Source: Collinsella sp. (GTDB lineage: Bacteria; Actinomycetota; Coriobacteriia; Coriobacteriales; Coriobacteriaceae). From it: 64,000 bases of DNA. A program made the translations under genes and the position numbers. The first letter of the stretch is position 1. Each line of letters opens with the position of its first letter. The notes below the pieces were generated by a model. That model searched no databases and was not told the DNA's origin. It saw only the letters and a list, made by a program, of their open reading frames with translations. Shown in pieces: positions 9,046-53,100 of this stretch. The stretch spans positions 857 to 64,856 of the forward strand of contig JAXIXR010000003.1 in assembly GCA_036304905.1 (NCBI GenBank), given 5' to 3'.

Positions 9046-9273
9046 ATGTTGTACTAGTGTAGCAGATTTGCCCCTTGGCCATGTAGCGCATGGCCACTCA
9101 TCAAGCAGGCTCTGCAGCGAATTATCGCCGTAGAGCCTTCTCAATAACGGAAAATTATAATCCAGAATAACACAAAATAATGGGATGGGGTTTCCTCTAA
9201 CCACATGTAAGGGAAATTCCATCCCGGTATTCGGCTAAAAAATGGGACAAGCTTTCCCAACTGGCGCTCAAAA

Positions 9274-12620: not shown

Positions 12621-12938
12621 CACATAACCTCCTTTTTGTCTACGTATTTCCTACACGACATGAAAGGAGTATAGCTGTTTGGTTTGTGGATTTATAGCTA
12701 AATTCGTAAAAGGTTGGTTTATTTATTTAAACGTCTAAGTTTGTTACAAATTGATTACGTTACTGCTTTTTGACTCATTACACGACAAGGCGTCGCTCAT
12801 CAAGCCATGCATTTTACAGATACAAGCAGGCTGTTCATTAATATCGATTTTAGGCAAGCGCGAGCGCGCTTGTACTGCCGCTATTTTGTTTAAACAGACA
12901 TGGCTTGACTATTAGCGTGACTTATGCACTAGCGCAAG

Positions 12939-13025
12939 TAGTCATTGGGGACGTTCTTAAACGACTAGTCGTTGGGGACGTCCTTGATTGACTGGTCATG
13001 TAAGAGCGTCCTCAACGACTAGGGG
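12939..13025. repeat. GGGGACG-type hairpin repeat module immediately 3' of hypA
   Basis: AGTCATTGGGGACGTTCTTAAACGAC(T/C)AGTC is shared with 51691-51720. Imperfect 15-bp stem TAGTCGTTGGGGACG / CGTCCTCAACGACTA. Confidence 0.6.
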
Positions 13026-13454
13026 CTAGACGATGTGGAGAGGGTTGGCGGCGTCGACGGCGTCGGGGGCGTCGGAGGGGTCATCGGGAACAGTGTCTGC
13101 CGGGTCCTCGTCGGGGGTCTCGATCTGTTTGATCATGACCTCTTGGCCCTGCAGCAAATAGGTCTCGCCGCTACCGCAATGGGGACAGGTCTTGCCGTGC
13201 TCGACTGTCGAATAGTCGCGGCCGCACGCCTCGCAATGTGTCACGGCCTCAACGGGCTCCACGATAAGCTCTGCACCCTCGGTGATGGGCTTTTTATCTG
13301 CCGCCCAGCGCCAAGCGTCGAGTAGCAAGTCGGGAACGACGCCCGAGACCTCGCCCAGCAGCAGCGTGACGCTCGAAACGCGACGCACGCCATTGGCGCG
13401 CGCCACGTTCTCGACATCGCGAATGATGTGATAGACGATCCCCAGCTCGTGCAC
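13026..13454 (-). CDS. hypA: Hydrogenase nickel-insertion protein HypA
   Basis: MHELGIVYHIIRDV..., zinc site CEACG...CPHCGS. GTG start with GGAAGGA RBS. Acidic C-terminal tail. Confidence 0.9.
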   Translation of the reverse strand: MHELGIVYHIIRDVENVARANGVRRVSSVTLLLGEVSGVVPDLLLDAWRWAADKKPITEGAELIVEPVEAVTHCEACGRDYSTVEHGKTCPHCGSGETYLLQGQEVMIKQIETPDEDPADTVPDDPSDAPDAVDAANPLHIV

Positions 13455-13466
13455 TTTTAATTCCTT

Positions 13467-13505
13467 CCGCCGTTCTAACGAACGGCGGTCGGCTTGACGC
13501 TGCGC
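13467..13505 (+). repeat. Hairpin plus GACGCTGCGC box module (second copy at 47113-47151)
   Basis: CCGCCGTT-ctaacg-AACGGCGG, then 7 nt, then GACGCTGCGC. The hairpin is identical to the one after hypD. Confidence 0.65.
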
Positions 13506-13648
13506 GAGTCCCAGACGGGCGATCTGCCTTTCAATCGTCGGGCATGGGCAAAAGCCCTATGCCCTCCTCTTTCAAGGCACCTCGCCACGCCTGGGACCTG
13601 CTCGCTGTCCAACCGCCCTCTGCGCCGTTCACTTACTTGTTAGGTCTC

Positions 13649-16426
13649 TTACTTCTTCCCAAATTTGATCTTAATTGCACGCTTCAATGCGTACTTGCCC
13701 AGGCTTGGGAGCTTTTGCTCGTATTTGACCATCGTGGAGCACTCGGGGCGATCGCGATCAAGATGGATGGCGTCAAACGCGCACTTGGTGGTGCACAGGC
13801 CGCAGCCGATGCACTTGTTAGGGTCGACGATCGAGGCGCCGCAGCCCAGGCAGCGGGCGGTCTCGGCGCGCACCTGCTCCTCGGTAAAGGTCTCAACATA
13901 CTCGCTAAACGGCGCAGCCTTCTCGCGTTCGCGGTCCACATGCGCAACCTCGCGGCTCGCGTTGTCGTAGCTCTCGAGCACAACGTCGTTGCGGTCGAGC
14001 GCGGTGTAGCGGCGCTGGTTGCGGCCGATGGTGAGCGTGGAGCCCGGCTGCACGAAGCGATGGATGGACACAGCGGCCTCGTGACCGGCGGCGATGGCAT
14101 CGATGGCAAAGCTCGGACCGGTATAGACGTCGCCGCCCACAAAGATGTCTGGCTCGGCGGTCTGATAGGTCTGGGGATCGGCAAGGGCACCCTGGCCGCG
14201 GCCAAGCTCCACCTTGGAGCCAGCCAGCAGGTCGCCCCACACAATGGACTGGCCAATCGACATGACTACGCGGTCGGCATCGACACGACGCAGGTCGTTC
14301 TCGTCGTACTCGGGCGCAAAACGGCCCTCGTCGTCAAAGACACGCGTGCAGCGCTTGAAGGTGATACCGCACACACGACCGGCCTCGTCCAGGTGAATCT
14401 CCTTGGGGCCCCAGCCGCAGCTGATGTGAGCGCCGTCCTCAACGGCCTCGCGACGCTCCTCCTCGCTGGCGGGCATCTGGGCCTCGCTCTCCAAGCAGAA
14501 CATCTCAACGTACTCGGAACCCAGACGGCAGGCGTTGCGCGCGACATCGATAGCCACGTTGCCACCGCCCACCACGATGGTGCGGCCGGGCAGCGCGTCA
14601 ATCTTGCCACTGTTGACCTCGCGCAAAAAGTCGACGGCCACGGTCACGTCCTCGGCATCCTCACCCGGAATACCGGCAAGGCGGCCACCCTGGCAGCCGA
14701 TGGCCACATAAAAGGCCTTAAAGCCCTGCGCGCGCAGCTCATCGAGCGTCACATCGCGACCGACCTCCACGCCATAGCGGAACTCGGCGCCCATCAGGCG
14801 AATGATCTCGACCTCTGCCTCGATAACGTCCTTCTCCAGCTTAAAGCTGGGAATGCCGTAGGTGAGCATGCCGCCCGGGCGCTCGTTCTTCTCGAACACG
14901 ACGGGCTTGTAGCCCTTCTCGGCCAGATAGAAGGCGCAGGACAGACCGGCCGGGCCGGCACCGATGATGGCGATCTTCTGATCGAAGCCGCCGGCACGCG
15001 TCGGCGTCACCACGGGCGGGACATAGCGGGTCGCGGCATCAAGATCGCGCTGGGCGATAAACTTCTTGACCTCGTCGATAGCCACGGCGGCGTCCACACG
15101 GCCGCGGGTGCAGGCATCCTCGCAGCGGCGGTTGCACACGCGGCCGCAGATAGCGGGCAGCGGGTTCTCGCGCTTGATGAGCGCCAGCGCCTCGTCATAG
15201 CGCCCCTGTGCCGCAAGCTTCAGATAGCCCTGAACGGCAACGTGCGCGGGGCAAGCCGTCTTGCAGGGCGCGGTGCCGGACTCGTGCGTCTCGATACGGT
15301 TATCGTTGCGGTAGTTGGGCGACCACTTGGTGTGGTCCCACTTGGTGGCATCGGGCAGCTCCTGGCGCGGATACTCGGGCACCTGTCCGCCGGCCTTTTT
15401 GCTGCAGAGCTTCTGGCCGAGCTTGGCGGCACCGGCGGGGCACACCTCAACGCAGCGACCGCAGGCAACGCACTTGTCCTTCTCGACCTTGGCGACATAG
15501 GCCGAGCGCGACAGGTTGGGCGTGTTGAACAGCTGAGAGGTGCGCAGGGCATAGCACACGTTGACGTTGCAGTTGCAGATGGCGAAGATCTTGTTCTCGC
15601 CGTCGATATTGGTGATCTGGTGCACAAAGCCGTTGTCCTCGGCCTGGCGCAGGATGTCGTAGACCTCGTCGCGCGTTACATAATGGCCGCGGTCGGTCTC
15701 AACCACATAGTCGGCCATATCGCCCACGGCAATGCACCAGTCGGCGGGGTCGTCGGCGCAGCCCTCGCCCATCACGCGACGGCTCGCGCGGCAGCTGCAG
15801 GTGCTGGCGGCATATTTGCCATCGTATTTGTCGAGCCAATGCTCGATATGCTCGATCGGCACCGAGGTGCTCGAAGCATCGATAGCCTTCTCGACCGGAA
15901 TGACGTGCATGCCGATACAGGCGCCTCCGGGCGGCACCATCGGCGTGGCCTTGGACAGTGGTCCCTTGGACGCCTGCTCAAAGAACTTGGCATAGACCGG
16001 GTGCTCCTCGAGCTGGCTCACGCGCATGTTGAGGAACTCGGCGGAACCCGGCACCAGCATGGGCAGCACCCACTGCTTGGCGCGCTCGGGGTTTTCCCAG
16101 TTGTACTCGAGCAGACCCGTGTAGCTCATGTCGTCGAGCATCTTCTCGATATCGGCTTCGGGCATGCTGGTGAGCTTGACCATCTCGGGCAGCGTATAGG
16201 GACGGCGCATCTTCATCTTGCAGAGCACTTCGGCCTGCTCGTCGGTTGCGGCCTCGGCAAACGACCAGTACTCGTAGCCCAGCAGCTCATCGCGATGCAG
16301 CAGACGGTTGGTGCAGTGCTCGCACAGCTTGACGATGGCCTCACGCGGATGCTCCGGCAGCGGCGGCACAAACTCCGCGCCGATATCGGGCTCGGTGTAG
16401 CTAATTCCCGGTCCGTTGAGAATCAT
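13649..16426 (-). CDS. Large Fe-S flavoprotein oxidoreductase (GltD-like NAD(P)H/FAD module plus 4Fe-4S ferredoxin domains)
   Basis: KIAIIGAGPAGLSCAFYLAEKGYKPVVFEKNERPGGMLTYGIPSFKL. Cys clusters CVACGRCVEVCP and CIGCGLCTTKC. ATG 16426 has a GAGAAGGG RBS. Confidence 0.8.
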   Translation of the reverse strand: MILNGPGISYTEPDIGAEFVPPLPEHPREAIVKLCEHCTNRLLHRDELLGYEYWSFAEAATDEQAEVLCKMKMRRPYTLPEMVKLTSMPEADIEKMLDDMSYTGLLEYNWENPERAKQWVLPMLVPGSAEFLNMRVSQLEEHPVYAKFFEQASKGPLSKATPMVPPGGACIGMHVIPVEKAIDASSTSVPIEHIEHWLDKYDGKYAASTCSCRASRRVMGEGCADDPADWCIAVGDMADYVVETDRGHYVTRDEVYDILRQAEDNGFVHQITNIDGENKIFAICNCNVNVCYALRTSQLFNTPNLSRSAYVAKVEKDKCVACGRCVEVCPAGAAKLGQKLCSKKAGGQVPEYPRQELPDATKWDHTKWSPNYRNDNRIETHESGTAPCKTACPAHVAVQGYLKLAAQGRYDEALALIKRENPLPAICGRVCNRRCEDACTRGRVDAAVAIDEVKKFIAQRDLDAATRYVPPVVTPTRAGGFDQKIAIIGAGPAGLSCAFYLAEKGYKPVVFEKNERPGGMLTYGIPSFKLEKDVIEAEVEIIRLMGAEFRYGVEVGRDVTLDELRAQGFKAFYVAIGCQGGRLAGIPGEDAEDVTVAVDFLREVNSGKIDALPGRTIVVGGGNVAIDVARNACRLGSEYVEMFCLESEAQMPASEEERREAVEDGAHISCGWGPKEIHLDEAGRVCGITFKRCTRVFDDEGRFAPEYDENDLRRVDADRVVMSIGQSIVWGDLLAGSKVELGRGQGALADPQTYQTAEPDIFVGGDVYTGPSFAIDAIAAGHEAAVSIHRFVQPGSTLTIGRNQRRYTALDRNDVVLESYDNASREVAHVDREREKAAPFSEYVETFTEEQVRAETARCLGCGASIVDPNKCIGCGLCTTKCAFDAIHLDRDRPECSTMVKYEQKLPSLGKYALKRAIKIKFGKK

Positions 16427-20107: not shown

Positions 20108-20180
20108 AGTTGCGGTGAAATAGGGATTGTTTTTGCTGGTCAAACCGCAAAACAGTCCCTATTTCACCGCAACTTATTGG
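20108..20180. repeat. Inverted-repeat element AGTTGCGGTGAAATAG...CTATTTCACCGCAACT (second copy 55931-55997), acting as a convergent-gene terminator
   Basis: 19-bp perfect arms. The flank CAGTTGCGGTGAAATAG ... CACCGCAACTTATTGG is shared with the copy after mgtA. Confidence 0.7.
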
Positions 20181-23318: not shown

Positions 23319-23515
23319 CTCGATCTGTAACATCTAGCAGCCATTTTTGATCCTAGATGTTACAGATCGAGAGAAAATGACCAGTGGCAACCGTTTGTCT
23401 CAATCTGTAACATCTACTCGGCAAATAGAGCTCTATCTGTTACAAATCGAGACAAACCGAGAACCACCACAAAGGGGACAGGCACCTTTGTGGTGGTTTT
23501 CGACGCTAACGGTCG
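23319..23515 (+). repeat. 195-bp repeat unit R1 (four copies of a 16-nt GTCTCGATCTGTAACA-like motif plus a CCACCACAAAGGGGACAGG hairpin)
   Basis: 20-bp perfect palindrome arms TCTCGATCTGTAACATCTAG / CTAGATGTTACAGATCGAGA, a second imperfect pair, and a terminal hairpin. Direct repeat of 24388-24582. Confidence 0.75.
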
Positions 23516-24276: not shown

Positions 24277-24387
24277 AGACGCTCATTAGAATGTCGTTCA
24301 ACGAGCACGGCAACATCGAGCTCGCCCCCCACCACCACGAAAGGGACAGGCCCCTTTGTGGTGGTTTTCGACTCTGGCGCTCAACTG

Positions 24388-24582
24388 TCTCGATCTGTAA
24401 CACCTAGCTGCCGTTTTGGACCTCAGATGTTACAGATCGAGACGAAATGTTCAGCAGTTTCCGTTTATCTAAATCTGTAACAACTACTCGGCAAATAAGG
24501 GTCTACCTGTTACAGAACAAGACAAACCGCGGACCACCACAAAGATGTCTGCCCCCTTTGTGGCGGTTCTCGACAAAAAGAA
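24388..24582 (+). repeat. 195-bp repeat unit R2 (direct copy of 23319-23515)
   Basis: Same module order as R1, roughly 75-80% identity by eye. An extra copy of the terminal hairpin lies at about 24325-24375. Confidence 0.75.
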
Positions 24583-27052: not shown

Positions 27053-27201
27053 ACTGTCTCCCACTCTGCCCAAAAGATTTGGGCGCATAGCATATATTCG
27101 TTCAATATCGTGCCATAGAACGGTTGCGAGTGGGTTACGAATCTGCGCATTCACTTTATCTCGGTAAAGTAAAGGACGAGCCCAGTGTGAGCCGGCAAAA
27201 T

Positions 27202-27284
27202 GATCCCTTGGGGACGGAGGAAAACGGATCACTGAGGGGGTCGGCCTGACCCAGTGATCCGTTTTCCTCCGTCCCCAAGGGATC
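27202..27284 (-). terminator. 33-bp perfect hairpin between hspR and the aconitase gene
   Basis: GATCCCTTGGGGACGGAGGAAAACGGATCACTG, 17-nt loop, then its exact complement. Confidence 0.6.
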
Positions 27285-27325
27285 ATGAAGTTGAATGCCA
27301 GATTGTCCGAATGCGGCCCGCGTAA

Positions 27326-27742
27326 CTACAAATCGGTCCCCGCGCCCAGCAGCTTGCGCATGACCTGTTCGGGGTTAACCGAGCCATCGCGCGGGGCCAG
27401 GGCAGTGATCTTCTTCTGCATCTTGTACTCGTGCAGCTCGTCCTCGAGCTGGCGCACGCGGGCGCGGAGTTTTTCGTTCTCGCGCTCGCGCTCCTCGGCA
27501 CGCTCCTTCATATCGAGGATGCGCACCACGCCGGCAAGGTTGATGCCTTCGTCGGTCAGCTGGTTGATGAGCTCCAGACGCTCGATATCGGCACGCGAAT
27601 ACAAACGCGTGTTGCCGCCCGAGCGCTGGGGGTTCACCAGGCCCTTGGACTCGTAGACGCGCAGAGTCTGCGGGTGCATGCCGGTCAACTCGGCCGCCAC
27701 GCTGATCATGTACAGCGGTTTGTTCCTATTGTCCTCGGCCAT
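27326..27742 (-). CDS. hspR: MerR-family heat-shock repressor HspR
   Basis: LYMISVAAELTGMHPQTLRVYESKGLVNPQRSGGNTRLYS. Last gene of the dnaK operon. Confidence 0.9.
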   Translation of the reverse strand: MAEDNRNKPLYMISVAAELTGMHPQTLRVYESKGLVNPQRSGGNTRLYSRADIERLELINQLTDEGINLAGVVRILDMKERAEERERENEKLRARVRQLEDELHEYKMQKKITALAPRDGSVNPEQVMRKLLGAGTDL

Positions 27743-31753: not shown

Positions 31754-31879
31754 CTTATCTCTGAGAGTTTAGGTTCGCAAATGCGCAGGTAGATGTACTG
31801 TTTGAGTTCTCGGCAGATCTATTGAGATCTATGTAGAGTTGACTGAGGTTTGCGTCCGGGGGTGCCTGGGGGCCGTCTT

Positions 31880-31991
31880 GCGGAAAGTTCATCCCGGTTT
31901 GAGCGTGGATTCCGGGTCGCAGTTTCCTCTAGCGGGCCCAACCGGAAACTGCGACCCGGTTTTCGGCCAAATAACGGGATGCCCTTTCCGC
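31880..31991. repeat. Nested GGAAA/CCCGG hairpin repeat element
   Basis: Outer pairing GCGGAAAG...CTTTCCGC. Inner 16-bp stem CCGGGTCGCAGTTTCC / GGAAACTGCGACCCGG. Related modules at 9274-9319 and 49085-49245. Confidence 0.6.
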
Positions 31992-32213
31992 AGGCGCGCT
32001 CAATCGCCCTATATTTCAAGTCACCTATAGCTAACATTTGCGCAGCTCAACGGCCTCACCTGCATGTTTTTTAGTAAGCCGTAGCATACTCGGCGAACGG
32101 TATGAAGATGCCGGTCAGAGGGTATTGCAAACGGTCGCTCCCGTGGTATGTTTTTGCCCGAATCAAACCGACGCGCATCGCCTGTAGCGTCGGTCAACAG
32201 AGAGGAAACTACC

Positions 32214-34617: not shown

Positions 34618-34768
34618 TGCAAATAACTTTAGATTCCGAGTGTATCGACCGGAGCAACAACGATGCCTTCGCTAGTTACGTGAGCCGGCATACCAAACGG
34701 AAGCGTACTTTTGTACGCGACCGACGATTGAACGTCAGATTGCCGCTTAGGGGCGTTTGCAGCGTCGG

Positions 34769-35314
34769 CTACGATAGGTCGTCTTCGTAGGGCATCAGGT
34801 CTGCCAGATAGCCTTTCTCCTTGAGCATGGCCTCGATCTCGTCGAGGGTTTGCTCATCCTCTGCCGCAATGCGATGGAAGTGATAGCCGCTGGTTACCGT
34901 CAGCAGCGGAAAGCTCTTGCCGCTCTCGATATCGTGCAGGTAGCGCTCAACATCGCGACGATTGCGGATGTCCAAGTCGGCCGTGATCTTGCCGTACACG
35001 CGGTGATTGACGATCACGTTGAGCACGGAGCCGCCGACGTCGACGATACTCGTGAGCTCATCGCCTGCCTGCTCCACGCTGTGGCGAACCTTGACCAAGC
35101 GCGTGGGCACGGCGGGGCTGCTGGGAGCCTCCTGCAGCACATAACCACGGTTGGTTGCCACGACATCGTGCCCATCGGCACGCAACAGGGCAATATCCTG
35201 AACCACGACCTGACGGCTCACGCCAACCTCGCGGGCAAGTGCACTGCCCGAAACGGGCTCCTTGGCTTCCTCGAGCACGCCCATGATGGCACGGCGACGC
35301 TCGCGGGCGTTCAT
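34769..35314 (-). CDS. niaR: NAD-biosynthesis repressor NiaR (HTH plus 3H domain)
   Basis: RRRAIMGVLEEAKEPVSGSALAREVGVSRQVVVQDIALLRADG. 3H-type His residues in the C-terminal half. Last gene of the nad operon. Confidence 0.8.
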   Translation of the reverse strand: MNARERRRAIMGVLEEAKEPVSGSALAREVGVSRQVVVQDIALLRADGHDVVATNRGYVLQEAPSSPAVPTRLVKVRHSVEQAGDELTSIVDVGGSVLNVIVNHRVYGKITADLDIRNRRDVERYLHDIESGKSFPLLTVTSGYHFHRIAAEDEQTLDEIEAMLKEKGYLADLMPYEDDLS

Positions 35315-43010: not shown

Positions 43011-43033
43011 CGGGATTTCCCGCAGCGCACCTG

Positions 43034-43104
43034 CCAAAAAGGGACAGGTTTGTTTTGGCAGGTTTAGAAGTTTTACCTACCAAAATAAACCTGTCCCTTT
43101 TTGG
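43034..43104 (+). other. 71-nt near-perfect hairpin between nikR and hypF (attenuator/terminator or repeat module)
   Basis: CCAAAAAGGGACAGGTTTGTTTTGGCAGGT...ACCTACCAAAATAAACCTGTCCCTTTTTGG. Contains the GGGACAGG motif seen in other hairpins in the window. Confidence 0.5.
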
Positions 43105-43127
43105 TCGGTTTTGATGAGGGGTGTCGC

Positions 43128-47106: not shown

Positions 47107-47112
47107 TAGGTT

Positions 47113-47151
47113 CCGCCGTTCTAACGAACGGCGGACCAGTCGACGCTGCGC
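47113..47151 (+). repeat. Hairpin plus GACGCTGCGC box module (copy of 13467-13505)
   Basis: CCGCCGTT-ctaacg-AACGGCGG, then 7 nt, then GACGCTGCGC, directly after the hypD stop. Confidence 0.65.
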
Positions 47152-47190
47152 CTCACCCATATAATTCCACCCACGATTGGAGTTTTCGAT

Positions 47191-49017: not shown

Positions 49018-49277
49018 CGAGCGGCACTGCTTAACGTAGCTGCGACAATTCTTCCGCGAGGAAAGCGCGTCCCGTTTTGGAGCTCCGAAATGGGATGCGC
49101 TTTCCGTTTGCGGCGCGTCGGGGAAACGGTATCCCGTTTCAGAGCAATATTCCGGGTCGCACTTTCCGCAACCAACCCCATCCGGAAACCGAGACCCGGA
49201 ATTCGACCAAAAACCGGGCCACATTTTCCCGAGCACTCGATGCAACGTTGGACAAAGGGGACAGGTTCATATGCGCC

Positions 49278-49514
49278 AAGGAGTGTCCCCAACTGTCGGC
49301 AGAAAAGGAGCGTCCCCAAGTGCCGCCCCAATGACTACCATGGCAACGCCGCAGGTAGAGGACGGACAGCGAAAACGCCCCTAAGCGAGCAAGGTGACGT
49401 GAAATGAAAGGGCGCTGACCTTCTGGTCGCGCCCTTGAAATTGAACGTCAGATTGCCGCTTAGGGGCGTTTGCAGCGTCAACTGGTTACGCGGTTCGTAG
49501 AACCGCGTAACCCC
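49278..49514 (-). repeat. Composite 3'-flank repeat, copy 1 (terminator-like hairpin, GACGCTGC box, stem-enclosed conserved core, GTCCCC modules)
   Basis: About 85% identical to 51751-51980. Outer stem is 49373-49387 with 49457-49471. Inner hairpin GGGCGCTGACC-ttct-GGTCGCGCCC. Confidence 0.75.
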
Positions 49515-50072
49515 CTAGTTCATCATCGCATTCATCATCTCGTTGGTTGCGGAATCGTCAGCAGACCACTCGCCGTCGTCATTGGCGGTGTACTTGAAGG
49601 TGACCGTGGTGTCCTTGGTCTTAGCAGCCTTGGTCACATCGACCATAACCTGACCGGCCATCTTGTACAACTCGTCATCGGAAGGCATCGAATCGAGCGC
49701 GGCGACCTTCTCCTGATACTGGGTGGCAAAATCCTCAACGATCTGGTTCATGGACTTGCAGGTAATGGTGACCTCGGCAGTTGCGGTGCCCTTGTCCTCG
49801 TCGACCGTCACGTCGCCGATCTTGTAGTCAAAGCCCTCGAGATAGCTCTTGGCATACTCCTTGGGATCGATGCCCAGCTGCTCGAACTCGTCGCCCGAAG
49901 CCTCTTCCAGACCGGCGAGGAAATCGTCTCCGCCATTCTTAACCTCATCAAACTGAGTCGTAAGGTCCTTGGTGATGAGCTCCTCGACCGAAGGGCCTCC
50001 GCAGCCGGAAAGTAGGACCACGCACGCAACCAAGACGGCCATGAGGGGCGCAAGCAGCAGCTTCTTTTTCAT
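49515..50072 (-). CDS. Lipoprotein, function unknown
   Basis: MKKKLLLAPLMAVLVACVVLLSGCGG lipobox. GGGAGG RBS before ATG 50072. Confidence 0.75.
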   Translation of the reverse strand: MKKKLLLAPLMAVLVACVVLLSGCGGPSVEELITKDLTTQFDEVKNGGDDFLAGLEEASGDEFEQLGIDPKEYAKSYLEGFDYKIGDVTVDEDKGTATAEVTITCKSMNQIVEDFATQYQEKVAALDSMPSDDELYKMAGQVMVDVTKAAKTKDTTVTFKYTANDDGEWSADDSATNEMMNAMMN

Positions 50073-50308
50073 GTTATTCCTCCCAATGAGCGGCACCGCG
50101 CTTCCCGGACACGGCGCACGTTGTAATAAGGTAAGCCCATAGTATCCACTTATGAACACCCTCGGCAGTACGAAGGCGCGGTCGGTTCGTTTTAGTATCC
50201 GAACGGTCTGTAGACTTGCCCAACGTGCAATAAACGCGTGCACCCGGTCTAATAAAAAGGGTGGCCGGACAATCCAACCACCCTAAAACATCCTCTGGAC
50301 GTTACAGC

Positions 50309-50842
50309 TTACTTGCGGACGACCTTGACGATGGCATCGCCGGCGGCGACGGCGGACTCGGCCTCGACGGCGAGCTCGACATCGGCAAACTCGGCGGTGT
50401 TGGACACGGCCACGACGACGCAGTCCTTGTAACCGGCAGCGGCGATCTTGGCGCGGTCGATCTTGAGTATGGGCTGGCCAGCCTTCACGACGTCGTCGGC
50501 CTTGACGAAGCCCTCGAAGCCGTCGCCGTTCATATTGACGGTATCGACGCCAACGTGCACCAGAACCTCGATGCCGCTATCGGACTGCAGGCCCACGGCG
50601 TGACCCATGGTGACGGTCACCTTGCCGTCGCAGGGAGCGTAGACCAGGTCGTCCTCGGGCCACACGGCGCAACCCTTGCCCAGAACCTCGCCACCAAAAA
50701 CGGGATCGGGCACGTCGGCCATCTTGATGACCTTGCCTTTGACAGGCGAGCACAGCACGTCGGCGCCGGCAGAAGCAGAGATGGAGGCCGGAGCAGCAGC
50801 GGCAGGCTCGGCCTTCTTCTTGAACATGTCAAACAGACCCAT
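50309..50842 (-). CDS. PTS glucose-family EIIA domain protein (stand-alone)
   Basis: DPVFGGEVLGKGCAV...GHAVGL...VLVHVGVDTV (phospho-His region). GAGGAG RBS. Confidence 0.85.
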   Translation of the reverse strand: MGLFDMFKKKAEPAAAAPASISASAGADVLCSPVKGKVIKMADVPDPVFGGEVLGKGCAVWPEDDLVYAPCDGKVTVTMGHAVGLQSDSGIEVLVHVGVDTVNMNGDGFEGFVKADDVVKAGQPILKIDRAKIAAAGYKDCVVVAVSNTAEFADVELAVEAESAVAAGDAIVKVVRK

Positions 50843-51019
50843 ACATTTTCTCCTCTTGATTAAGCGCAACGTTTTGCGCATGCCTATGGTGATTATAGTG
50901 CCAAATGGCCAAAATACTAAGGCGAGGGCTCGAATCGCAAGCCCTTCCCGGTAGTGCTCGTGGGATGAGCATCTCCTTTGCATCGCGGGTCGATAAGCCG
51001 AGTATCGCCTGCGCAGGTC

Positions 51020-51583
51020 ATGGAGCGCATGGAGGGGCTCTACCAGAACACGCTGGCCGAGACGCAGGAGCTGCTCGACCCCACGCAGCTCGACCACGCC
51101 ACCAAACTCATCGCGAACGCCCGACAGGTCGACATCTACACGGGCTCGCACAATCTCTATCCAGCGGGAATGTTCCGCGATCGCCTGCTCTCCGTCGGTA
51201 AAAGCGCGACGTGCCACGACAATGTCGAAGCCCAGGTGCGCACGGCGCTCGCCTCGGGCCCCGACCATGTGGCAATCGTCATCTCCTACAGCGGCCTTGC
51301 CCCCAACCTCAAGGACATCTTACCGATCCTCAGCAGTCGGCATGTCCCGGTCATCGTTATCGGCACGCCTCATTGCGCACGCATTCACCCTGGCTTTGCC
51401 GCCTACCTCACGGTGAGTGACCACGAGAGCATGACGCATCGCATCACGCAGTTCGCGAGCCACATCGCCGTGCAATACGTGCTCGATTCGCTCTACAGCA
51501 GCTACTTCGCCAAAGACTACGCCCGCTGCTCCGAGTTCCTAGAGCGCTCGTTTCCCTACACCCGCCTGCCCGGACTCAAGTAG
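51020..51583 (+). CDS. SIS-domain protein resembling an RpiR/MurR regulator that lacks the N-terminal HTH domain
   Basis: RQVDIYTGSHNLYPAGMFRDRLLSVG...VAIVISYSG is a SIS fold. Only about 135 nt separate it from the divergent EIIA gene, so there is no room for an HTH_6 domain. Start is 50978 or 51020. Confidence 0.6.
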   Translation: MERMEGLYQNTLAETQELLDPTQLDHATKLIANARQVDIYTGSHNLYPAGMFRDRLLSVGKSATCHDNVEAQVRTALASGPDHVAIVISYSGLAPNLKDILPILSSRHVPVIVIGTPHCARIHPGFAAYLTVSDHESMTHRITQFASHIAVQYVLDSLYSSYFAKDYARCSEFLERSFPYTRLPGLK

Positions 51584-51690
51584 CGACGAGCGTGGATTTT
51601 TGGACGCTTAACTAACGAGCGTGGATAATCTTCCACTTTGAGGCCGCACACAGGCCAAAACCGGGAGATTATCCACGCTCATTTCTGCCT

Positions 51691-51980
51691 AGTCATTGGG
51701 GACGTTCTTAAACGACCAGTCAAACAAGAACGTCCCCAACGACTACCCCGAGGAGTGTCCCAAACTGCCGGCAGAAAAGGAACGTCCCCAGGTGCCGCAT
51801 CCGGAGCAAGGCAACGCCGCAGGTAGAGGACGGACAGCGAGCGGGCCGCATTTGAGACAAGGTGACGTGAAACGAAAGGGCGCTGACCTTCTGGTCGCGC
51901 CCTTGAAGTTGAACGTCAGATTGTCCAAATGCGGCCCGCGCAGCGTCGAGCTGTTACGGCGTTTGGTAAAACGCCGTAAC
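51691..51980 (-). repeat. Composite 3'-flank repeat, copy 2 (51751-51980 homologous to 49278-49514; 51691-51745 is a GGGGACGTTCTT hairpin module)
   Basis: Outer stem GCGGGCCGCATTTG (51841-51854) with CAAATGCGGCCCGC (51926-51939). Core is nearly identical to copy 1. Confidence 0.75.
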
Positions 51981-52660
51981 TAACGAGCTCCGTACTGCTC
52001 GTAGTAGGCGTCGATGGCGGTCTTGAGCTCGTCGTCGATGACAACCTTGCCGTCGATCTCGTGGTTGTAGAGGGTCGCGACGACCTCGGCCATGGAGACG
52101 ATGCTCGCGACGGGGAAACCGTACTTGGCCTCGATCTCCTTCTGCGCGGTGGTCACACCGCCCTTGCCGACCTCCATGCGGTTGAGGGACACGATCAGGC
52201 CCTTGATCTCGACATCGGCAGCAGCCTTGACCTTGGGATAGGTCTCGTCGATGGACTTGCCGCTGGTGGTAACGTCCTCGACCATGACCACACGGTCGCC
52301 GTCCTTGGGCTCATAACCCAGCAGGTTGCCCTTATCGGCACCGTGGTCCTTGGCCTCCTTGCGGTCGCAGCAGTACTTGACCTCCTTGCCGTACAGCTCG
52401 TGGTAGGCAATTGCGGTCACGACGGCCAGCGGAATACCCTTGTAGGCCGGTCCAAACAGCACGTCAAAGTCGTCGCCAAAGTTATCGTGGATGGCCTGGG
52501 CGTAATACTCGCCCAGCTTCTTGAGCTGATAGCCCGTCACGTAAGCGCCGGCGTTCATAAAGAACGGGGACTGACGGCCGCTCTTGAGCGTAAAGCTGCC
52601 GAACTTAAGGACGTCGGACTCGACCATAAACTTGATGAACTCTTGCTTGTAAGCCTCCAT
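51980..52660 (-). CDS. pyrE: Orotate phosphoribosyltransferase
   Basis: FGSFTLKSGRQSPFF and the PRPP motif VVMVEDVTTSGKS. Confidence 0.92.
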   Translation of the reverse strand: MEAYKQEFIKFMVESDVLKFGSFTLKSGRQSPFFMNAGAYVTGYQLKKLGEYYAQAIHDNFGDDFDVLFGPAYKGIPLAVVTAIAYHELYGKEVKYCCDRKEAKDHGADKGNLLGYEPKDGDRVVMVEDVTTSGKSIDETYPKVKAAADVEIKGLIVSLNRMEVGKGGVTTAQKEIEAKYGFPVASIVSMAEVVATLYNHEIDGKVVIDDELKTAIDAYYEQYGAR

Positions 52661-52958: not shown

Positions 52959-53100
52959 ACGCCACCGGCAGATCGTCAACCCCCCCCACAAAGGTGCCTG
53001 TCCCCTTTGTGGTAGTTCGTGAGCTTGACGTGAGCGACATCTAGGTTTTTTGCAACTCAATACGACACGTACGCTAACTCCCTTCAACAAGGAGGACCCT

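Follow-up and report, generated by a model that had tools for sequence, protein, structure and literature searches.

A family of stop-codon-adjacent mosaic hairpin repeats in Collinsella

REP and BIME repeats are imperfect palindromes of 20-40 nt, with a stem of 5-13 bp and a loop of 2-20 nt, that carry an unpaired GTAG or CGTC at one end; association with a RAYT (Y1 transposase) gene that they flank is among their hallmarks. GTAG-tagged REPs lie mostly downstream of open reading frames (ORFs), where the terminal TAG is often the stop codon of the flanking ORF, and their sub-families differ in stem sequence (PMC3733652, Di Nocera et al. 2013). Evolution of REPs by gene conversion has been proposed (Higgins et al. 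1988, an entry in the reference list of PMC3733652), and REPs within 15 nt of a stop codon have been reported to stall ribosomes (work cited in PMC12306157). The summary in PMC3733652 presents ERIC/IRU, Correia/NEMIS, bcr1 and similar repeats as gene-adjacent and co-transcribed elements that raise or lower mRNA stability, Correia being cut by RNase III. Here we describe a composite element found in a 64,000-nt stretch of Collinsella sp. DNA (assembly GCA_036304905.1, contig JAXIXR010000003.1, positions 857 to 64,856), hereafter the window. The unit is ~176 nt long: a stop-adjacent 12-bp hairpin (H0) is followed by a GACGCTGC box and then by nested helices (P0-P3) that form a rod of ~130 nt. 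We consider it moderately likely that it represents a hitherto undescribed family, specific to Collinsella, of intergenic repeats that are palindromic, mosaic and of the REP/BIME/ERIC/Correia kind, serving as a structure of the 3' untranslated region (3' UTR) and diversified by recombination.

Read in gene sense, the unit begins with the stop codon, followed by the perfect 12-bp H0, a 5-nt linker, GACGCTGC, the 16-nt 5' arm of P1 and CAATC. Its middle comprises TGACGT (the 5' arm of P2), TCAA with a few more bases, P3, TTTC, ACGTCA (the 3' arm of P2) and CCTTG, and it ends with the 3' arm of P1 (which has one bulged T), TCGCTG, ~20 variable unpaired bases and GCGGCGTT. The latter pairs with GACGCTGC, two G.U pairs included, to form P0. 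P3, a hairpin of 10 bp, is capped by an NNAA tetraloop and has a single bulged base on its 3' side. H0 (28 nt in total, with a 3-5 nt loop and the ends GTTACGC/GCGTAAC) is within the size range of REP hairpins. When folded as RNA, each of the two copies from which the analysis started (copies 1 and 2) gives H0 and a single long rod, at -97 kcal/mol and with a z-score of about -10. The unpaired blocks GACGCTGC, ATYTG, TTCAA, TTTC, CACCTTG and TCGCTG are near-invariant across the family, as are the single-base bulges.

The family resembles REP and BIME repeats in that its stable palindromes lie mostly downstream of genes and its stem sub-families differ in sequence yet stay complementary. With GTAG REPs it also shares the mosaic clusters with other conserved motifs and the use of TAG as a stop codon. 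However, REP units measure 20-40 nt and have no counterpart of the 130-nt nested-helix rod, GTAG is present in only ~27% of the Collinsella copies, and the H0 units are not arranged as head-to-head dimers. Intergenic location next to coding regions, a length of 100-200 nt and long hairpins are shared with ERIC/IRU, Neisseria Correia/NEMIS, Bacillus cereus bcr1 and pneumococcal BOX and RUP, and BOX is modular as well. We detected no sequence similarity to any of these, no Rfam match and no terminal inverted repeats or TA duplication; the 5' end (GTTACGCGG...) is not complementary to the 3' end (...GCGGCGTTGCCNTTGTTG), the palindromy being internal. Compared with MITE-like repeats, the coupling to stop codons is far tighter (~77% of sites), and the helices are discrete variants that reassort. 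An intrinsic terminator likewise places a GC-rich hairpin just downstream of a gene, but H0 and most rods lack a U tract, and copies are found inside operons (hypD-hypE, oxidoreductase-hypA). The terminator-like score is limited to the inner part of one P1 variant, which ends in GGGGCGTTTT.

The original prediction, made from the window alone, had not recognized a named family, and our searches agree with it. At gathering thresholds, Rfam 15 gave one match in the window, a tRNA, and a search of positions 49150-52100 at E-values up to 10 gave only chance matches of the microRNA or small nucleolar RNA type. As even the sub-threshold matches over both full copies brought up no fitting family, the element is not the Collinsella-1 motif (Weinberg 2010). 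The two REP papers (PMC3733652, PMC12306157) report no such family for Coriobacteriia, a string search of 200 of the 408 files in the supplement of a human-microbiome RNA catalogue (PMC8040213) returned no sequence match, and in the papers searched we found none describing this repeat, or Collinsella repeats in general. Though the family is new and its make-up unusually elaborate, none of its striking properties is without precedent.

A wider census, which had been proposed as a check, was carried out by searching a one-genome-per-species collection with a pattern built from the conserved unpaired blocks. It returned at least 120 loci, and nearly all of the matches listed are labelled Collinsella. 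The main alignment, drawn from these loci (L002-L120), contains 103 distinct copies from more than 100 Collinsella genomes. Across the 61 pairs of H0, P0, P1, P2 and P3 taken together, 90.8% of pair cells are paired, as opposed to 28-43% when the partners are shifted by 1-3 columns. Both sides have changed in 37 of the 61 pairs, and none of 500 shuffles reached the observed values. RNAalifold found compensatory double changes in 24 of 35 pairs of the same alignment. Because the retrieval pattern fixed both GACGCTGC and ATCTGNCNTTCAA, the invariance of these two blocks in the 103 copies is circular. A second, independent sample consists of gut-metagenome contigs (L121-L200) retrieved solely via PyrE homology. 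In the alignment of this sample, fitted to the model, 96.3% of cells are paired and 42 of 61 pairs show double changes, and the conserved blocks are kept with small variation (ATTTG, GACGCTGT). Taken together, these comparisons support selection on structure well beyond the two copies for which it had originally been predicted.

A covariance model, another of the proposed checks, scores all three full copies in the window far higher in sense than in antisense (Table 1). When run against 711 kb of loci it found ~10 copies besides those seeding the loci. The 64-kb window has three full copies and the fetched DNA yielded roughly one additional copy every 70 kb; extrapolation from these densities suggests that a Collinsella genome probably carries some tens of copies. 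Two loci with other labels, L087 (Bulleidia) and L092 (Firmicutes), hold typical Collinsella copies, and their contigs may be mis-binned. The most divergent copy (95 bits) is at L056 120-275 (-), in a metagenome-assembled genome labelled Eggerthella; it is without H0, all of its helices covary, and it follows a tRNA gene and a U-tract terminator.

Each helix occurs as a set of discrete variants: at least 13 clusters for P1, 7 for P2 and 9 for P3, along with many tails. H0 has at least six real variants (an identity threshold gives 13 clusters, several of which are not hairpins). The 5' and 3' arms of P1, with ~70 nt of other modules between them, are nearly perfectly co-inherited (33/33, 17/17, 10/13 and so on), and a 5' arm is joined to an unrelated 3' arm in 2 of the 103 copies, for example in L010. 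In contrast to its arms, P1 as a whole combines freely with P2, P3, H0 and the tail. Co-inheritance of arms together with reassortment of helices fits an exchange of nested segments between family members, which would take place at the conserved single-stranded blocks. We also considered the solo H0 as the primary unit and rejected it; H0 without box and rod is rare, and the solo forms resemble internal deletions.

Turnover is directly visible at fixed sites. Among 80 gut-metagenome contigs encoding a PyrE with at least 98% identity to that of the window, 78 have the site behind pyrE occupied, with the element starting 2-18 nt past the gene; the remaining two contigs end too early to tell. The 63 full copies at this site represent four P1 types and 20 module combinations, and the H0, P1, P2, P3 and tail variants differ among related genomes whose flanks are 95-97% identical. 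Replacement of the element at a single genomic site is piecemeal. The junction with pyrE shifts as well, TAGTTACG being preceded directly by CGT, GAG, GAGTAG or GAGTAGG, and the last residue of the protein is thereby altered. Seventeen of the 80 contigs end inside the element, which thus breaks short-read assemblies. Elsewhere, the window, L032 and L108 have the solo unit between hypD and hypE, whereas L005, L068 and L110 lack it. L032, L070 and L110 contain nested H0 fragments, and truncated and chimeric copies are found across loci. Syntenic Collinsella loci are 86-94% identical to the window, which confirms it as Collinsella DNA; this synteny and the pattern scan speak against a Bifidobacterium origin, which had also been considered. 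No empty site of a full element was seen among the census loci, since these were picked for carrying it. The hypD-hypE site is the sole empty one and is too diverged to define the element ends; within this limit, no recurrent target duplication (TA or TAG) was found at the 3' boundary. A phage-borne element was rejected, as only 1 of 14 pattern matches in viral contigs was a true copy. In L126, L128, L131 and others, the 3' part (P1 3' arm, TCGCTG, tail and P0 3' arm) is tandemly duplicated, and the TTGCTCCGGATGCGGC segment after copy 2 of the window looks like a relic of such a duplication.

Position relative to stop codons, a further check proposed at the outset, proved to be tightly constrained. 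In ~80 of the 104 copies with an upstream same-strand ORF, the stop codon is 31-37 nt before the box, that is, 0-5 nt before H0. Collapsed to distinct genomic sites, ~30 of 39 (~77%) have a same-strand TAG or TAA no more than 8 nt before the start of the element. The adjacent stop is TAG in 31 cases, TAA in 12 and TGA in none, compared with 244, 238 and 132 for other genes in the same DNA, and the last sense codon before the element is T-rich (T at the second position in 60% versus 20%). Of 97 copies, 66 have a TAG in the 10 nt upstream of H0 and 26 have a GTAG, the spacing between TAG and H0 being 0-6 nt; in the commonest junction TAG is directly followed by TTACG, and the H0 stem opens with the final G of the stop. 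On the opposite strand, CGTC (from the reverse complement of GACGCTGC) is 5 nt from H0; in CGTC REPs it is adjacent to the stem. Orientation follows the gene, flipping within 2.3 kb between the hypD copy (plus strand, 47.1 kb) and the lipoprotein copy (minus strand, 49.4 kb), and the GC skew is negative over nearly the whole window, across this flip.

Two other roles for the stop-adjacent position were rejected. A riboswitch or leader of the downstream gene is not compatible with downstream genes that are unrelated and lie 30-700 nt off or are convergent, and read-through or recoding of TAG is not compatible with a frame that varies relative to H0 and with orthologs that swap TAG and TAA. In this GC-rich genome, TAG ends more genes than either of the other two stop codons (23 of 45 large ORFs in the window; 272 TAG, 237 TAA and 157 TGA in loci L002-L120), which is unusual for a genome of ~60% GC.

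In total, the window contains three full and three decayed copies (Table 1); the pattern CAATCTGACGTTCAA, with up to three mismatches, occurs six times in it against 1.3 expected. The two copies of the original prediction are real (83% identity over ~300 columns), each starts at a minus-strand stop codon, and the order of hairpin, GACGCTGC box, outer stem, core and GGGGAC-containing modules is as claimed. In copy 2, the G of the stop TAG doubles as a base of the H0 stem. Several details needed correction. The cores differ at two positions over 66 nt rather than at about four. Both pairs of outer-stem (P1) arms are indeed complementary, but the 5' arms differ at ~10-11 of 16 positions and not at every one, and the copy-1 arm reads AAACGCCCCTAAGCG, with four C. 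The copy after niaR (34683-34771) had been taken for a single arm; it retains the box (34759-34766), the 5' arms of both P1 and P2 and a variant form of the P3 hairpin in addition to a decayed 3' half, and its ortholog in L039 is a complete rod. The copy after hspR is a truncated remnant, as stated, produced by a deletion that joined the 5' arms of H0 and P1; an inverted repeat with perfect 35-bp arms (27200-27286) stands in place of its interior, and the orthologs of this copy in L037, L039 and L081 are full elements.

Two plus-strand copies had been missed. One is full and divergent, with all helices covarying (P1 GAGTCCCAG/CTGGGAC, P2 TGCCTT/AAGGCA, P3 GGGCATGGGC-AAAA-GCCCTATGCCC); the other, a solo hairpin and box, probably arose by internal deletion. 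For the flanking genes, the original naming largely holds. The product encoded before copy 1 has a lipobox (LLSGC) and a weak match to DUF5105, the one before copy 2 is a phosphoribosyltransferase consistent with PyrE, and the others are NiaR (HTH_11 and 3H domains) and an HspR-like MerR regulator. The GGGGAC modules behind copy 1 lie outside the 176-nt unit and are a separate, often co-located repeat family.

Table 1. Copies of the composite element and adjoining GGGGAC repeats in the window (bits are covariance-model scores).
Feature	Position	Strand	Remarks
Copy 1, full, after lipoprotein gene	49342-49517	-	189 bits sense, 40 antisense
Copy 1, TAG	49515-49517	-	
Copy 1, H0	49485-49511	-	
Copy 1, GACGCTGC box	49472-49479	-	
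Copy 1, P1 5' arm	49456-49471	-	
Copy 1, core with P2 and P3	49390-49455	-	
Copy 1, P1 3' arm	49373-49389	-	
Copy 1, TCGCTG	49367-49372	-	
Copy 1, variable tail		-	
Copy 1, P0 3' arm	49345-49353	-	
Copy 2, full, after pyrE-like gene	51810-51982	-	194 bits sense, 40 antisense
Copy 2, TAG	51980-51982	-	
Copy 2, H0	51953-51980	-	
Copy 2, box	51940-51947	-	
Copy 2, P1 5' arm	51924-51939	-	
Copy 2, core	51858-51923	-	
Copy 2, P0 3' arm	51813-51820	-	
Full divergent copy	13463-13636	+	146 bits sense, 28 antisense; orthologous copies in L028, L076
Solo H0 and GACGCTGC-GCC, between hypD (TAA 47104-47106) and hypE	47107-47152	+	31 bits
Decayed copy after niaR (TAG 34769-34771)	34660-34771	-	No H0; degenerate 3' half
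Remnant after hspR (TAG 27326-27328)	27287-27328	-	H0 5' arm fused to P1 5' arm and P2 5' arm by deletion
GGGGAC modules downstream of copy 1	49276-49340	-	TTGGGGAC in short hairpin loops
GGGGAC modules downstream of copy 2	51748-51798 (within 51688-51808)	-	
58-nt inverted-repeat REPIN-like unit	51688-51746	-	TAGTCGTTGGGGACGTTCTT...AAGAACGTCCCCAATGACTA; after copy-2 modules

Among the three options that had originally been put forward, a BIME-like mosaic repeat is the best fit. Judging from its position, the element is probably transcribed together with the upstream gene, whose 3' UTR would begin with it, and its effect would depend on folding into hairpins. H0, beside the stop codon, would form a barrier at the 3' end, and the long near-perfect duplex could be a pause site, an RNase III-type processing site or a stabilizer. 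The duplex might thereby set the stability of the upstream mRNA and the read-through into the next gene, as REP, ERIC and Correia do, and hairpin and duplex together may influence translation termination, mRNA 3'-end stability or processing. Spread and diversification would proceed mainly by recombination or gene conversion between copies at the conserved single-stranded blocks, with mismatched arms being removed by selection or by hairpin-templated repair.

A number of observations weigh against this proposal. The RNA role is deduced from position, and only the sense orientation, the adjacency to stop codons and the asymmetric conserved loops speak for a function in the transcript. The antisense strands fold equally well (-101 and -103 kcal/mol), losing only P0. 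G.T cells outnumber A.C cells (334 vs 172), but the surplus comes from the invariant P0 alone, so that there is no strand signal elsewhere; at least 5% G.T is seen in eight pairs, and at least 5% A.C likewise in eight. Another of the original options, a 3'-UTR RNA family, agrees with position and orientation but gets no support from these strand comparisons. The full divergent copy is conserved and yet inverted relative to both of its minus-strand flanking genes (an oxidoreductase gene with its stop at 13649 and hypA with its start at 13454), and one orthologous group (the L003 group) is placed behind a canonical terminator; both fit poorly with an obligatory 3'-UTR function. The decayed copies after niaR and hspR are tolerated, and further exceptions are copies without H0. 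H0 is followed by NNNNNGACGCTGC and not by a U tract, and is thus not an intrinsic terminator by definition. A canonical intrinsic terminator, with a 12-bp stem followed by TTTTATT, is found at 50258-50284 (-), between the genes for a phosphotransferase system EIIA protein and the lipoprotein, which indicates that the organism uses U-tract terminators where the composite element is absent. As to the mode of spread, no transposase or autonomous insertion sequence with the same ends was seen by eye in ~1.2 Mb of fetched Collinsella DNA, in which no systematic search was made.

Equal folding of both strands and wobble pairs without strand bias would also suit a relic of a non-autonomous single-stranded DNA (ssDNA) transposon of the REP/RAYT or IS200/IS605 (PATE) type, in which a Y1 transposase cuts the (G)TAG-headed H0 and pairing is kept since the enzyme reads folded ssDNA, without any RNA function. 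We regard this as unlikely but deserving of serious attention. It is favoured by the TAG, or GTAG, shortly before H0 in the counts given above, by the extension of the junction motif into the last codon, by presence/absence polymorphism and nested insertions, and by the constant association with GTAG-headed GGGGAC hairpins resembling REP/REPIN units; GTAG REPs are known to provide TAG stops (PMC3733652). However, orientation tracks the gene and not the replichore, the spacing between TAG and H0 is variable, GTAG heads only about a quarter of copies, and the other end has neither a related second hairpin nor terminal inverted repeats or a target duplication at the 3' boundary. No transposase gene was seen (the genome itself was not searched), and a 130-nt rod with four covarying helices and conserved loops would be superfluous for such a relic. 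Another candidate is a structured non-coding RNA family, either a 3'-UTR-derived small RNA or a protein-binding RNA, with helices kept by RNA function and loops serving as recognition sites. Four covarying helices, near-invariant unpaired blocks and bulges, covariance-model scores of ~190 bits in sense against ~40 in antisense and the location of most copies in the sense of the upstream gene all point this way. We nevertheless consider it quite unlikely, given tens of copies behind unrelated genes, rapid module swapping at a single site, tolerance of truncated and chimeric copies, the conserved inverted copy, the equally stable antisense fold and the absence of a Rfam match; no promoter of its own was found for the element.

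Like integron attC sites, the elements lie directly after stops, keep structure rather than sequence and have extrahelical single bases, so a structure-specific recombination site might be envisaged, as might, from the nested look of the modules, a small element inserting into host hairpin loops, the third of the original options. Both are scarcely credible. The genes beside the elements (pyrE, hspR, niaR, hypD, hypA) are housekeeping genes scattered over both strands, with no cassette arrays or integrase context, there are no RYYYAAC/GTTRRRY (R/L) core sites, and the ends of H0 miss their consensus. Every variable stem is flanked by common outer (GACGCTGC, TCGCTG) and inner (CAATC, CCTTG) conserved blocks and is therefore not an independent host hairpin; loop insertion would need more than 10 independent, exactly centred insertions. 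Finally, the unit may be a functional, exchangeable 3'-end cassette, whose stop-bearing hairpin and RNase III-type duplex would set the fate of the upstream mRNA and which a dedicated or very efficient copy-paste mechanism, with the folded strand or RNA as its possible template, would swap between genes and strains. This seems to us decidedly improbable; if true, the 20 module combinations behind pyrE would be selectable expression variation and not junk turnover.

The mosaic repeat family constitutes an unannotated feature at the 3' ends of housekeeping genes in an abundant human gut genus. In practical terms, it breaks metagenome assemblies, alters the last or the stop codon of genes, and offers a hypervariable marker for strain typing. 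It is also a natural example of whole helix arms being replaced many times with pairing kept and modules reassorting, and a test case that could tell apart RNA function, ssDNA recognition and hairpin-templated repair as reasons for the upkeep of such repeats. It might likewise reveal how stop-adjacent hairpins affect translation termination and mRNA decay in Actinomycetota.

Other repeats accompany the composite element. GGGGAC hairpin modules lie within 90 nt past it in 43 of 99 copies. At least three types of hairpin repeat display TTGGGGAC(G) in their loops (12938-13023, 13180-13186, 27200-27286, 49276-49326 and 51688-51798), namely GTAGTCATT-loop-AATGACTAC, often as a 58-nt inverted dimer, GGCAC-loop-GTGCC, and TGATCC-loop-GGATCA, the last having the perfect 35-bp arms of the hspR site. 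These hairpins look like GTAG-headed REP/REPIN units or a binding motif displayed in loops. Another intergenic family, ATTCCGGGTCGCAGTTTCC...GGAAACTGCGACCCGG, is found at 9177-9257, at 31879-31992 (as an inverted repeat with 49-nt arms) and at 49149-49229, just downstream of composite copy 1. An inverted repeat with 26-bp arms, AGTTGCGGTGAAATAGGGA...TCCCTATTTCACCGCAACT (20108-20174), recurs past composite elements in L003, L005, L026 and L030, and a further one, ATGAGCGTGGATAATCTCCCGG...GGAAGATTATCCACGCTCGT (51616-51681), which gave a chance Rfam match to mir-942, recurs in L009, L018, L027 and L031. At the pyrE locus of L018 and L031, related ATGAGCGTCCAAAAATCC... repeats enclose ~800 bp of additional DNA, which encodes a protein with an N-terminus that, judged by eye, is helix-turn-helix-like. 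Hairpins of the ACCACCACAAAGGGGACAGGCNCCTTTGTGGTGGT type occur five times in the window (23461-23505, 24331-24370, 24533-24572, 43029-43109 and 52974-53018), two of them within a 199-nt direct repeat (23306-23504/24376-24574) whose copies are 80% identical and 1070 nt apart.

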